Assembly (NCBI GenBank): GCA_030614005.1
Contig: JAUWKS010000008.1
Location: 1-32,000 of the forward strand
Direction: 5' to 3'
From: Candidatus Heimdallarchaeota archaeon
Lineage (GTDB): Archaea; Asgardarchaeota; Heimdallarchaeia; JABLTI01
DNA length: 32,000 bases
In this document: piece after piece, positions 25,050 to 30,882 of the stretch
How positions within the stretch are numbered: position 1 is the stretch's first letter
How the letters are laid out: every line of letters starts with the position of its first letter
Program-made: the position numbers and the translations under genes
Notes under the pieces: model-generated
Seen by the model: the letters and a program-made list of their open reading frames with translations, nothing else
The model's database searches: none
What the model was told of the DNA's origin: nothing

Positions 25050-25332
25050 AAGATTCCCTCGTACAGAAAACTTAATTTATTGAATACAATAGTGCCAAGC
25101 TATATGTATCCGAATGACCCTTTCAAAACGTGTTGCCTTTAAAATTATCCATTGATATTCATTAAAGAATATTTGAAGTCATATACTTAGATAAATATTT
25201 AATTAAATAAATTATTGTTAAATGAATATCTATCTGTTTTTTATGTGAAATAATCTTTCTTTAACAATAGAAGTCTCGAAGAGGTTTTTCCATCATATTT
25301 AGTTGTAATTTGACATTCCCTTCTTGTTAAAT

Positions 25333-25360
25333 AAAAAGGAAAGTGTAGAGAAATCTACAC
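25333..25360 (-). terminator. Hairpin plus T-tract downstream of degV
   Basis: GTGTAGA-4nt-TCTACAC (25343-25360) followed by TTTCCTTTTTAT on the minus strand, 16 nt past the stop codon. Confidence 0.55.
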
Positions 25361-25376
25361 AATTTTACTCTTATTA

Positions 25377-26276
25377 TTATTTAGTTTTTAGAAGCCATTC
25401 AGGATCAAAATCACCAATATAACCAAAAGCAAGCAATTTCTTCCCTGTGTAGAAAGCATTTATTACTCCTGTTTCTTGGATGAAGATCTCTTTATTATCT
25501 GGATTGTGCTTCTCCATATGGGCTTTAATCTCTTCAGCGGCTTCAGGCCATCTTGAGTGTGCAATGTAAAGTGTTTTATTATCCTTCACCATACTTACCA
25601 ATGCTTTTTCACCAAACTTCTTCATTTGTCCGATAATTAATTCATCATCAGCTTTTATGTTGCCATGAACATGAATTTCTTCGTCAATGAAAGAAACCAC
25701 TGGTTTAAACTTCAAGATGTCTGCAAAGAATTTCTTGGTCTTAGATAATCTGCCTGTTCGTACAAGATTCTCTAATTTATTTATGATACCTGCGTACTTT
25801 GTTTTCTTTGTCCATTCTTCAACTTTTGCAGTCACTTCTTCCATTGAAGCTCCTTGAGCTGCAAGTCTAGCTGCTTCTAATACGACTATTCCAACACCAA
25901 CACTATTTGCTGGAGCATAAAACGTCTTGATATCTTTATCCGCCAAGTACTGTTTTACAACCGTTGTTGCAGTATTATAGACACCTGAAAGTTTGTGTGT
26001 AATGAAGATACCAATTGCAGAGTCAGCAATTTCCAATGCTTTTTCGAATGTCTGCATGAATACCCCTGGTCCAGGAATTCCTGAAGTGGGGACTTCTTTT
26101 TCAGTCACCTTGTAGAATTCATCCCAGGTCAAGCCTTTTTCTATTCCTAAAGATTTGTAAGATTTCTCTTCAAAATTCAATAATATTGGAACAATTGTGA
26201 TATTATATTTTTCTTCAAATTCTGGTGGAATATCACTAGAAGCGTCTGTTACTATTGCTACTTTTTGTTTTGCCAT
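25377..26276 (-). CDS. degV: DegV family fatty-acid-binding protein
   Basis: IVTDASSDIP, PTSG.PGPG, I..KLSG.YN.A, LENLVRTGRLS, LKFKPVV. Confidence 0.92.
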   Translation of the reverse strand: MAKQKVAIVTDASSDIPPEFEEKYNITIVPILLNFEEKSYKSLGIEKGLTWDEFYKVTEKEVPTSGIPGPGVFMQTFEKALEIADSAIGIFITHKLSGVYNTATTVVKQYLADKDIKTFYAPANSVGVGIVVLEAARLAAQGASMEEVTAKVEEWTKKTKYAGIINKLENLVRTGRLSKTKKFFADILKFKPVVSFIDEEIHVHGNIKADDELIIGQMKKFGEKALVSMVKDNKTLYIAHSRWPEAAEEIKAHMEKHNPDNKEIFIQETGVINAFYTGKKLLAFGYIGDFDPEWLLKTK

Positions 26277-26418
26277 TTCTTACACTTTCCTATTTATTTT
26301 TGAATTGACTTTATAATTAGAATTGATATTACAATGATTCTTGCATTTTTAATTTTTTTGTCCGAACTTTAACAGATAAATTTCTTGAAATTATATACTA
26401 ATTGTTTAGTAATTATCT

Positions 26419-26613: not shown

Positions 26614-28719
26614 TCATAAAGGCAGATTTGAAATAAAATCAAATAGTCTTTCTTTCTCATATGAAAAATCATTTTTATCTTCAGTCAGCAATAAAGGAAG
26701 GAAAATTTCTTTGATATTGTCTTTGGAAATTTCTAATTCTTTTGAGATTAGTTTCAATAATTTAAGAATCTCAGTAAGCTTCTCATTGATGAAAAAATCA
26801 AAAATTTCCAGAGCTTGATTTGAGATGTCCTCTTGGTCATGAATAAATTCATCTTTCACAATAAGAACTAACTCGTTAATCAATCTTATCAATGTTAGTA
26901 AATCATGAGCTGCTATTTCGGGATAACGATGCATCAAAAATTGAATAATAGAAACTTTATTTTCTTTTCCGAAATGTAAACTAATAGACAACATTAGTGG
27001 AATATCAATGTGTTCAAGATCTAAATCTGCATAATAAAGAACCATTTTATTTAACCAATTTTCAATTGTGAGACTTTTCAGCATCTTAGGTAATTTCTTT
27101 GGCATTTCATTCTTGATTAATTCTAACAATTTTATAATAACAATAACCGAAGATTCTAGTGCAATTTTCTCTCCGATGATTTTTTCATTTCGATTTAGTG
27201 TTTTTCTTAATAATTTTGAATCCGTTTCAGAAATAGTATTTAGGAATTCATAAATAGTTAATAGTTTCTTTTCAACTTCAATTTTTGAATATATTCTGTC
27301 AATAGTTAGCTCGTTAATCAAAGCAACTCGGTCATCAAAAGATAATTCTTGCATTGAAATATTCACTAAATCTAATTCACTTAGACCTGAAAACAGTTCT
27401 ATTCTAGCAGCTTCCTTTTTTGAGTATGCACCTATTTCCAAAGATGATTTCAAAGGACTATCCTTATCACTTGTAGTATCATCAACTTTATCCAATTCCT
27501 TTTCAGCCAAATCACGAATTTGGTTTTTGCTTTCTTCTAGAATTTCTAGGGTCATTGCTTTCTTAATTGAAAATATGGTTGCAAAAAGACAACTAATTTC
27601 AAATAGTGTTTCCTTTTTTTTACGTTCATTCTCCATTTCAGAAACATATCTGATTATATCAATTAATTGTGAATCCCCGGAGTTAGCAGCTTGAATAATT
27701 TCCATGGTCGATGAATGAGTATAACTTGCGATAATTGTAGAAGCAATCCAAGCCTGGGCTATTTTTTTAGCAAGAAGGTTCGTTGGTAATTTAGCTAAGA
27801 ATTTTACTAGTAAATCAGTTTCACCTTTACTAAGTTCTTTCAACAAAAGATTGATTTCCCGCAGATTCTTTTCTTGTTTAACTTTTTCAATCAGATTGTC
27901 GAAAGAAAGATCTATTAATGTTCTTGCAAATTGCAAATCTATTAAACGAAGTGTAGTTATTAAAGCTGGTATACTTGTTAATTGCTCTTGGGTTTTGAGA
28001 AGTTGTTCCAAGAAGCTAGTCAAGTTATACAATAATTCTATTATAGATTTCTTCTTTAACTTACTTAAACCAAACAAAATTTTGTTGATATAAACAATAT
28101 CACTTTCGCTAGTTATGAGTGATTCAAAATTCTTTAGAGTGCCAGTTCGTAATTCTCCTAATTTTGGATTTTTCAAATGCTCAATACTCATATTGCCAAT
28201 TGCATTTATTACCTCCTCAATTTCAGAACCCTTACCAGATACATTGAAGTTTTCAATTGTTAACTCCCAAGAAGTCTTCTTATTTTCTACTAAAGCTTCA
28301 ATTTCAGCTTTCTTTGATTCTATCTTGCAATCTATTAGATTTTTACCTACTAAGACTATTGGAATATTTCCACAATTAACCACTACCTCAGTTATCCATT
28401 TTTCGAGATTTATTAGGAAATCTGAGCAAGTAAAGTCGTAAATCAATATACAACTATGAGCATGATGCAACATAAACCTACGTGTCGATTCAAATCTAGG
28501 TGAGGTATCTATATCAGATACAACAAATTGTATACCATCTTGATTATTTAATGAACGCCAATTTATAAGAAGTATATCAACTCCAATGAATTCCTTTTGA
28601 TTGGAACCAAATCCCTTTTTTACTTTTGGGTGATTTATAAGAAAATCACGATTGACTAATGGATCACTAAGAATAATCATTTTTCGTTTGAAAAAATCAG
28701 TGGTTTTTTTTTCAGCCAT
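26614..28719 (-). CDS. Degenerate Rab-like GTPase domain fused to about 40-aa helical repeats
   Basis: The N-terminal ~170 aa keeps small-GTPase order (IGVD, CILIYD, LEKWITE, IPIVLVG, SGK) but G1/G3/G4 are altered; the Leu/Ile-rich C-terminal ~500 aa has recurring L.EKI..E..L..I..LL units. Confidence 0.7.
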   Translation of the reverse strand: MAEKKTTDFFKRKMIILSDPLVNRDFLINHPKVKKGFGSNQKEFIGVDILLINWRSLNNQDGIQFVVSDIDTSPRFESTRRFMLHHAHSCILIYDFTCSDFLINLEKWITEVVVNCGNIPIVLVGKNLIDCKIESKKAEIEALVENKKTSWELTIENFNVSGKGSEIEEVINAIGNMSIEHLKNPKLGELRTGTLKNFESLITSESDIVYINKILFGLSKLKKKSIIELLYNLTSFLEQLLKTQEQLTSIPALITTLRLIDLQFARTLIDLSFDNLIEKVKQEKNLREINLLLKELSKGETDLLVKFLAKLPTNLLAKKIAQAWIASTIIASYTHSSTMEIIQAANSGDSQLIDIIRYVSEMENERKKKETLFEISCLFATIFSIKKAMTLEILEESKNQIRDLAEKELDKVDDTTSDKDSPLKSSLEIGAYSKKEAARIELFSGLSELDLVNISMQELSFDDRVALINELTIDRIYSKIEVEKKLLTIYEFLNTISETDSKLLRKTLNRNEKIIGEKIALESSVIVIIKLLELIKNEMPKKLPKMLKSLTIENWLNKMVLYYADLDLEHIDIPLMLSISLHFGKENKVSIIQFLMHRYPEIAAHDLLTLIRLINELVLIVKDEFIHDQEDISNQALEIFDFFINEKLTEILKLLKLISKELEISKDNIKEIFLPLLLTEDKNDFSYEKERLFDFISNLPL

Positions 28720-28735
28720 TTTCCTTTTTTCACCT

Positions 28736-30478
28736 TTATTCCAAGGGAAAAGAGGTTAATTCTGAATAATAGTCTATTGCTTGTTGAATGAATTCTCTTT
28801 CAATATATCCATGAGGAGATTCTACACTAAACAACCTATCAGCAAGATGTTTCACAGACATTTTTTGCCCGGCAGCAATTTTCCATTCGTTTTTCTTTCG
28901 GTATGTTTCTTGTCCTAAATTGATTAGATCTTTTTTGGAAATTTTAAGTCCAATTGCATTTAAGCTTTCCAAAGAACGTGAAACATTGTATACTTTTCTA
29001 GCGAAAAGACAAACTACTAAAGAATTTAATACTTGACGCCATTGCTCTTCTTTAACCAACGAGTCAACTAAATCTTTGTAATCTAATTCTTTACCAAGAT
29101 GTTTCTGGTCATAGCTATACCCTGCATTACAGAGATGCGAATGTCTTTGTCCAATTAAATGACCAATAATACTCCCTGGACCGGTAAAATACCCTGCTGG
29201 TGTTTGCCCTCCAATAATTATTGCGAAATCTTTCCCACCGTACTTCTTTACGCAAGCATCTAATCCTTCGCCAAGAGTTTCATAAAATTCATTCGCTCTT
29301 CGAACAATCAGTTCTATTGCCGTAAGATAATTCATTGTACTGCCATATTCGAAAACTACGCCCATAGTTTCTTTATGAGTAATTAATTCTTGTTGAAAAG
29401 CATCTGTAGCCCAACCTAAGATACCACCGAGAGTAATAATATCCATACCATTGCGATCTGTGATTTCAATTAAACGCAAAACATCGCTTGCATTTTCAAT
29501 GCCAAGATTAGACCCAACAGCATAGAGTAATTCATAATCATATGGAACGAAAGTTGTTTCAACATCATATTCTTCTTTTTTATATGGTATACGCAAATAC
29601 GCAACGTGAATACAACCAACAGGACATTGAGAACAAGCGATTTTTCTTAATAGTAAGTTTTCAGCGAAATATTCCCCAGAAATATTATCTGCAAATTCAA
29701 AACGTCCTGAACTAAAATTCCTTGTTGGTAAACCACCAATAACATTCATTGGTTGTATACCTGCAGAGGTGCCAAGAATATGGTATTTATCCATATCATC
29801 GCTGTCTTTGATATGATTGAAGATAGTTTTGTACACTTTTTTGTAAGCTTTCATATCAGGAAAAGTAATATCTTGTGTACCTTCAACTACGATTGCTTTA
29901 AGATTCTTAGAACCAAAAACAGTGCCTAAACCTAAGCGACCAAAATGACGATAGTTGTCAACATTGACGTATGAGTATTTTATTAATCTGTCACCAGCGC
30001 GTCCAGTACGAATGAAACTTCTTCGTCCTGGTCCTTGAGGTTCTGCATCTCGAAGAATTCTCCCAACAGAAAAAACACTTCGCAAATTCCAAAGTAATTC
30101 AGCATTCTTTATTGTAATACTATCATCATGAATTGCAATATAAACAGGATGAGATGCCTTCCCCCGAATAATCATTCCATCGTAACCCGAAAAGCGTATT
30201 GCCGAAGCAAGTCTCCCTCCAGCATAACTTTCGCCTAATTCGTTATTTAATGGAGATTTAAACATTGCAACCGTCTTTGCGGCAGTAGGATATGCAGCAG
30301 TTAGAGGGCCTATAGCAAATACAATAACATTTTCAGGAGAAAGAGGGTCAACTTTAGGGTCACAACTTTTAGTAAAAAGTTCTGTAGCTAAAGAAACACC
30401 GCCAAGAAATTGATTTAACTTTGAGTCCTCTACTACCTTTACTCTTCTTTTTGTTAGATCAATATCAATAATTCTCAA
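28736..30478 (-). CDS. Aldehyde:ferredoxin oxidoreductase (tungstopterin AOR/WOR family)
   Basis: FLGG..LA, KSPLNN.LGES.AGG, GYDGMII.GKA, GLGTVFGSKNLKAI, C..CPVGC, DYELLY; the likely TTG start at 30478 overlaps the upstream TGA (TTGA). The track start is 30547. Confidence 0.92.
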   Translation of the reverse strand: MRIIDIDLTKRRVKVVEDSKLNQFLGGVSLATELFTKSCDPKVDPLSPENVIVFAIGPLTAAYPTAAKTVAMFKSPLNNELGESYAGGRLASAIRFSGYDGMIIRGKASHPVYIAIHDDSITIKNAELLWNLRSVFSVGRILRDAEPQGPGRRSFIRTGRAGDRLIKYSYVNVDNYRHFGRLGLGTVFGSKNLKAIVVEGTQDITFPDMKAYKKVYKTIFNHIKDSDDMDKYHILGTSAGIQPMNVIGGLPTRNFSSGRFEFADNISGEYFAENLLLRKIACSQCPVGCIHVAYLRIPYKKEEYDVETTFVPYDYELLYAVGSNLGIENASDVLRLIEITDRNGMDIITLGGILGWATDAFQQELITHKETMGVVFEYGSTMNYLTAIELIVRRANEFYETLGEGLDACVKKYGGKDFAIIIGGQTPAGYFTGPGSIIGHLIGQRHSHLCNAGYSYDQKHLGKELDYKDLVDSLVKEEQWRQVLNSLVVCLFARKVYNVSRSLESLNAIGLKISKKDLINLGQETYRKKNEWKIAAGQKMSVKHLADRLFSVESPHGYIEREFIQQAIDYYSELTSFPLE

Positions 30479-30882
30479 CTTTCCACTTCCTCCATTTCTA
30501 AAATGCCATGAGGACAGAAAGGTACGCAGAGTCCACAGTGAATACAAATAATCGGCATACCATTTTGAGAATCAAGTTTTATCGCCCCAATAATACAAGC
30601 ATCCTTACAAAGACCACATGCATCACACTTACTTTTATCCAAAATAACTCCTCCGCCTTTTCTTTTTCGTAAAGCTCCTGAAGGGCAAGCTCTCAAACAA
30701 ACTGGATCTTTACAACCTCTACAAACAACTATACTATAATACGCGGTCTGTCCTGCAGCAATTACAGAAATTGCTGATTGATCAACGGATAGTGTATTAA
30801 ATCTCTCTCGAGCACAAGCCATAACACAACAAAGACAACCAACACATCTTTCGATATGGCGAACAGTAATTTTCTTTGGCAT
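30475..30882 (-). CDS. Multi-[4Fe-4S] ferredoxin-like subunit of the AOR
   Basis: CVGCLCCVMAC, CRGCKDPVCLRACPSGA, CDACGLCKDAC, CIHCGLCVPFCP; translationally coupled to the AOR. Confidence 0.92.
   Translation of the reverse strand: MPKKITVRHIERCVGCLCCVMACARERFNTLSVDQSAISVIAAGQTAYYSIVVCRGCKDPVCLRACPSGALRKRKGGGVILDKSKCDACGLCKDACIIGAIKLDSQNGMPIICIHCGLCVPFCPHGILEMEEVES

Follow-up and report, generated by a model that had tools for sequence, protein, structure and literature searches.

The 32,000-nucleotide window analysed here (positions 1 to 32,000 of contig JAUWKS010000008.1 of the Candidatus Heimdallarchaeota archaeon assembly GCA_030614005.1) encodes, on its reverse strand, a 701-residue protein that combines a Rab-like G domain devoid of its G motifs with a long C-terminal helical region. 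We consider it probable, at roughly two chances in three (about 0.65), that this is a conserved and lineage-restricted pseudoGTPase of the class-i type, which is free of nucleotide and acts as a protein-binding scaffold. Class-i pseudoGTPases are incompetent for both GTP binding and hydrolysis (PMC12490416). At the level of sequence and structure the present family shows the corresponding combination of features, namely that the G fold is kept, the G motifs are lost and the loss is conserved in orthologs that are under purifying selection.

Examination of the N-terminal domain with Pfam recovers Roc (5e-8) and Ras (7e-8), both over the cut-off, and a profile of the family aligns with Rab35 (E 2.3e-11), with GDSGVGKS facing SDPSVNRD at G1. 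The passing of the curated cut-off and a predicted six-stranded α/β G-domain together place it in the Ras-superfamily small GTPase fold (PF00071 / PF08477). The initial annotation had proposed that the G-domain scaffold is kept, and the segments on which it relied (CILIYDF at residues 90-96, LEKWITE at 105-111 and IPIVLVG at 119-125) are all located in the protein; in the AlphaFold2 (AF2) model the N-terminal domain folds as a G domain whose closest matches are Rabs. As in Thor-Rab (PDB 7EZB; PMC10933270), Rab35, Rab23 and Rab7, which are its best sequence and structure matches, the domain has an α3 tryptophan (LEKW) and a β5 strand of the form IPIxLxG. Canonical Rabs, however, possess intact G1-G5 and about 180-200 residues, whereas here the motifs and a C-terminal Cys are missing and a 515-residue extension is present. 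The C-terminus reads SNLPL; it has no Cys close by and lacks the prenylatable Cys motif of the Rab family proper; published Asgard Rabs likewise lack a prenylated C-terminal extension (PMC10933270). The N-terminal domain would thus descend from a Rab-like small GTPase, with the fold retained. The match to Roc might also be accommodated by a divergent ROCO-type protein, in which Roc is followed by COR, or by another known multidomain GTPase, an origin that we regard as very improbable. The region after the Roc-like domain (residues 190-701) is predicted to be all-helical and yields just a chance-level match to DUF1283 in a Pfam search with E up to 10.

Comparison with the consensus of 60 canonical Ras-like sequences revealed that GDxxVGKT is replaced by SDPLVNRD, TIGxDF by FIGVDI, WDxAGQxxF by SDIDTSPRF, GNKxD by GKNLID and ETSAK by NVSGK (Table 1), and none of the features of a functional GTPase at G1, G2/G3 or G4/G5 is found. 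The broken G1, G2, G3 and G4 strings reported in the initial annotation each occur at the expected residues; the string SGK, assigned there to G5, is present but not conserved in orthologs. The key residues of G1-G5 are likewise missing from the entire family (10-12 sequences, with identities as low as 26%): every member is without GK[ST], DxxG, [NT]KxD and SAK, all relatives have T, A or I in place of the DxxG glycine, and the G2 threonine is retained in just 2 of 10 alignment rows, while D69 is almost invariant. In the same genome 36 of the 44 Ras-family matches retain GxxxxGK[ST], and the gene under study is the sole above-cut-off Ras-family match that lacks G1, DxxG and NKxD together. Given that all members are without the motifs while the other Ras-family matches of the genome are mostly canonical, the loss is, judging from these alignments, ancient, common to the family and specific to it.

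Two further observations touch on these motifs. Five other Ras-family matches of this genome (C16:13845-14225, C57:31906-32247, C7:9331-9657, C9:14981-15274 and C125:22700-22981) start late in the profile and have no GxxxxGK[ST] by a crude regular expression, with an in-frame TGA in one of them; they are possibly further pseudoGTPases or fragments. The ortholog P0005 (annotated as 666 aa) has 53 extra in-frame upstream codons (L044:3478-3636 (-), G074) that encode the conserved β1 strand and a STPLVSND G1 remnant with no preceding ATG, GTG or TTG; possible reasons are a start codon of non-canonical type, an error in the sequence or wrong calling of the start.

The remnants of the motifs are conserved no less than the remainder of the domain, with entropies of 1.11 (G1), 1.45 (G2) and 1.53 (G3) against a domain mean of 1.66, and NRD is seen at G1 in 4 of 7 sequences (5 of 8 rows including P0138, a near-duplicate of P0003). 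Such conservation suggests a new constraint and not drift. The same non-random substitutions could be read as those of a non-canonical but working nucleotide binder, in which a pocket of Arg24, Asp25, Asp69 and Asn127 holds a nucleotide or a phosphorylated ligand and still switches or senses. An arginine is able to contact phosphate, and an aspartate a metal. Nevertheless, both P-loop glycines are replaced (by Ser and Asn), the guanine-specificity motif NKxD and SAK are absent in all members, and the G1 region of P0010, QAPSIVSG, has neither Arg nor Asp; in Ras, a single change at G15, K16, S17 or D119 already cripples binding. We accordingly view a working binder as possible but rather unlikely, and favor the pseudoGTPase reading, under which the residues for phosphate, magnesium, guanine and hydrolysis catalysis have been lost and the domain would most likely bind no nucleotide.

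In a survey of 399 reference genomes from the phylum, only one Heimdall-group genus was found to have the full protein, in 5 of 11 genomes including the source genome (completeness of the metagenome-assembled genomes of that genus, 64-92%). An exhaustive search of 1.84 billion representatives recovered about 10 family clusters, the rest being weak G-domain-only matches, and two further word-index searches with alignments found no homologs beyond it. One homolog is labelled Heimdallarchaeota in an NCBI record. Another, P0004 (L039, G080:C57), carries the NCBI label 'Candidatus Bathyarchaeia archaeon', yet a 722-aa open reading frame (ORF) of equal length and similarity is found in a genome of the source genus, and the label is probably wrong or outdated.

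The full-length homologs are 64, 56, 41 and 38% identical to the protein, and the more distant ones 26-33%. Estimates of dN/dS (nonsynonymous over synonymous substitution rates) by the Nei-Gojobori method (NG86) lie at 0.31-0.45 for four ortholog pairs and are alike in both domains; with dS partly saturated, they are upper-side estimates. For the closest pair (P0003/P0138) the counts are too low and P0138 reaches the contig end at its 3' side, so that the value of 0.93 for its C-terminal part was disregarded. A decaying or mis-called gene, with selection relaxed in this copy alone, could be invoked from the fact that these ratios are not very low and that the full protein is found in fewer than half of the genomes of its genus, all incomplete. 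However, the 701-codon frame has no internal stops, intact ORFs of about 700 aa with the same substitutions occur in several species, the fold is predicted with confidence, and the N-terminal and helical domains are equally conserved. The ratios and the intact ORFs in several species, even if they indicate only moderate constraint, together exclude that the gene is a pseudogene in decay, and the ortholog alignment practically refutes this alternative. Loss of the P-loop lysine in orthologs, which the initial annotation had proposed to check together with a low dN/dS, is consistent throughout the family, at dN/dS values that show moderate constraint. Its overall reading of a pseudo-GTPase with a Rab-like fold and broken motifs is supported by the fold, the family-wide loss and dN/dS.

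The C-terminal 515 residues are predicted to be all-helical and contain an internal duplication of about 130 residues (199-331 with 440-570; hhalign self-hit, probability 93%, E 3.2e-7), through which the helical domain arose in part. The helical units of about 39-40 residues proposed at the outset can be located (residues 272-298, 472-498 and 511-536), but the repeat is best supported as the ~130-residue duplication, since a ~40-residue periodicity is weak in the sequence: other self-hits reach E 0.02-0.06, and a hidden Markov model seeded with two units finds extra copies at independent E-values (iE) of 0.01-0.3. An NCBIfam search with this region gave no match, a PDB profile search with its alignment returned designed helical proteins only (E 0.02 or worse), and the ESM Atlas offered no usable match by features and G-domain rows only by shape. 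The structural resemblance to ARM/HEAT proteins is at noise level, falling below the ~13 mark for helical repeats in a model with a mean predicted local distance difference test (pLDDT) of 60.

Parts of the helical region occur elsewhere. One free-standing ORF (about 129 aa; L050:1483-1872 (+), G073; also P0014 and P0106) is 35% identical (E 2e-10) to the last ~120 residues and lies in a region with no trace of the remaining pseudoGTPase gene; given that this homolog stands alone, the C-terminal tail looks like an independent module. Proteins of 350-407 aa, encoded by 4 out of 6 genomes within a single genus of another Asgard family, share the repeat module (hhalign probability 86%, E 5e-6). 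These repeat-only relatives (L051:959-2002 (-), L053:1111-2169 (-) and L054:892-2115 (-)) have no Pfam match, and no G domain was found in or adjoining them; a split-gene form, with a G domain beside a repeat protein, was accordingly rejected. By their sequences, they constitute an uncharacterised Asgard helical-repeat family.

The AF2 model of the whole chain has a predicted TM-score (pTM) of 0.89, which implies a defined arrangement of both domains. When the two domains were folded as separate chains they scored 0.51, as against 0.00 for the best of three controls. Of 80 solved complexes, 58 attain this score, as do 2 of 110 mismatched pairs, with scores of 0.60 or under comprising only 7 of the 80 solved complexes and both mismatches; contact agreement in the separate-chain runs was at least 91% and partner pLDDT at least 81. 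These predictions lend weak support to docking of the G-like domain in cis on the helical domain. The pseudoGTPase domain is fused to, and is probably docked on, an all-helical repeat domain.

The three top structural matches of the G-like domain are Rabs in complexes with guanine nucleotide exchange factors (GEFs), namely TRAPPII, Fuzzy-Inturned and Sec2, and GEF-complex Rabs outscore nucleotide-bound Rabs by 2-3 Z units. Rab-GEF complexes hold the nucleotide-free state. These matches, and the presence of about 36 canonical Ras-family genes in the genome, are consistent with a special case of the scaffold reading, in which the domain is frozen in a nucleotide-free-like form and acts as a natural dominant negative that sequesters proteins of GEF type (DENN, longin, roadblock) belonging to the many Rab-like GTPases of the genome. 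Yet the gene has no genomic linkage to regulator genes, the switch regions may be buried on the protein's own helical domain, and AF2 conformations are an unreliable guide to ligand state, and we hold such a decoy to be improbable. With equally little confidence one might conceive of a permanently nucleotide-free Rab mimic mounted on its own ARM-like arm, which would trap GEF-type regulators of the same kinds or form a pre-assembled GTPase-effector unit; if true, it would be a precedent, in archaea, for two elements of eukaryotic trafficking, namely pseudoGTPase scaffolds and GTPase-solenoid pairs.

In light of known class-i domains, we propose that the most likely role of the protein is that of a fixed protein-binding scaffold. 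The AAGAB psGD, CENP-M and the pG1/pG2 domains of p190RhoGAP are class-i pseudoGTPases that serve as protein-binding modules (PMC12490416, PMC10211241, PMC5593906), and the scaffold role is suggested by analogy with them. Like these, the archaeal domain keeps the small-GTPase fold, has lost all G motifs, is conserved and lies within a larger protein, and from sequence and model it would share with the eukaryotic class-i domains a presumed nucleotide-free role in protein-protein binding. Unlike them, it has a Rab-like origin in archaea and a different helical partner domain, and there is no detectable sequence relationship. As a nucleotide-independent scaffold or adaptor, the protein could offer binding surfaces on both the G-like domain and the helical arm without any switching. 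Several points weigh against this proposal: 1) an Arg occupies the position of the P-loop Lys and an Asp that of the Ser/Thr, with the G3 Asp still present, which makes a non-canonical phosphate or metal contact conceivable; 2) dN/dS of 0.3-0.45 indicates moderate constraint only, at a partly saturated dS of 0.6-1.4; 3) the fold of the C-terminal domain has no confident match; 4) the AF2 confidence for that domain is based on about 12 family sequences; and 5) no conserved neighbour gene or known partner indicates a scaffolded target.

The gene lies downstream of a gene for aldehyde:ferredoxin oxidoreductase (AFOR; 28736-30547), which is itself preceded by a 4Fe-4S ferredoxin gene, and is followed by degV, icd, aconitase and citDEF. 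Close upstream spacing is also seen in two relatives, L040 (16 nt, from an upstream gene without a Pfam entry) and L047 (41 nt past a confirmed AFOR). This recurrence suggests that the pseudoGTPase gene is co-transcribed with the ferredoxin and AFOR genes in this sub-lineage only. The order AFOR-gene-degV-icd is kept only in L040 and L047, the two closest relatives, whereas P0004 and P0010 sit in unrelated neighbourhoods, so that gene context is uninformative about function. An inverted repeat of 19 nt with 95% complementarity (25329-25347 and 26281-26299) closely brackets degV (25377-26276), which here runs in the same direction as the pseudoGTPase and icd genes and is on the opposite strand in L040 and L047. 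The position of the repeats and the difference in strand together suggest that the degV cassette was inverted between them.

Table 1. Features of the pseudoGTPase gene and its immediate upstream region (coordinates of the window)
Feature	Coordinates	Strand	Residues	Remarks
Whole gene, 701 aa plus stop	26614..28719	-		ATG at 28719, stop at 26614-26616; uninterrupted ORF
Spacer of 16 nt, upstream AFOR stop to gene start	28720..28735	-		Shine-Dalgarno-like AGGTGA
N-terminal Rab-like pseudoGTPase domain	28165..28692	-	~10-185	
G1/P-loop remnant SDPLVNRD	28645..28668	-	18-25	neither Gly retained; Arg for Lys, Asp for Ser/Thr
Switch I/G2 remnant FIGVDI	28573..28590	-	44-49	Phe at the Mg-binding Thr position
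G3/switch II remnant SDIDTSPRF	28492..28518	-	68-76	Asp retained; Thr for the DxxG Gly, Ser for the catalytic Gln
G4 remnant GKNLID	28330..28347	-	125-130	replaces GNKxD
G5 position SGK	28231..28239	-	161-163	unconserved among orthologs
Helical module 1	27727..28125	-	199-331	~three units of ~40 residues, three short helices each
Long-helix connector	27403..27726	-	332-439	helices 313-345, 350-383, 387-410, 422-444; charged loop ~411-421
Helical module 2	27010..27402	-	440-570	duplicate of module 1
C-terminal helical tail	26617..27009	-	571-701	homolog in a congener stands alone as a 129-aa ORF

In full-text literature searches, no publication on pseudoGTPases of archaea came up; such dead enzymes are in print for eukaryotes and bacteria only. 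Canonical Rabs, along with roadblock and longin fusions, have been treated in a structural study on small GTPases from Asgard archaea (PMC10933270), and a 2026 preprint, in which this architecture is untreated, describes α-solenoids as more abundant in Asgard archaea than in most other prokaryotes and less so than in eukaryotes (10.64898/2026.10.28.762692). With the ARM/HEAT partners of GTPases (mDia DID, FMNL2 GBD-FH3, importin-beta, KAP3 and beta-catenin) the helical domain shares no sequence similarity and has sub-noise structural scores; the GTPase partner there is active and a distinct protein, unlike the fused pseudoGTPase described here. The weight of the finding is limited, as the family is narrow (one genus and a small number of metagenomic sequences); the protein is tractable for work on binding and structure. 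PseudoGTPases are emerging as a class of scaffold that serves eukaryotic trafficking, the assembly of kinetochores and Rho signalling, and a conserved, selected, motif-dead Rab-like domain joined to a repeat arm would show that the 'dead switch as scaffold' evolved in archaea too.
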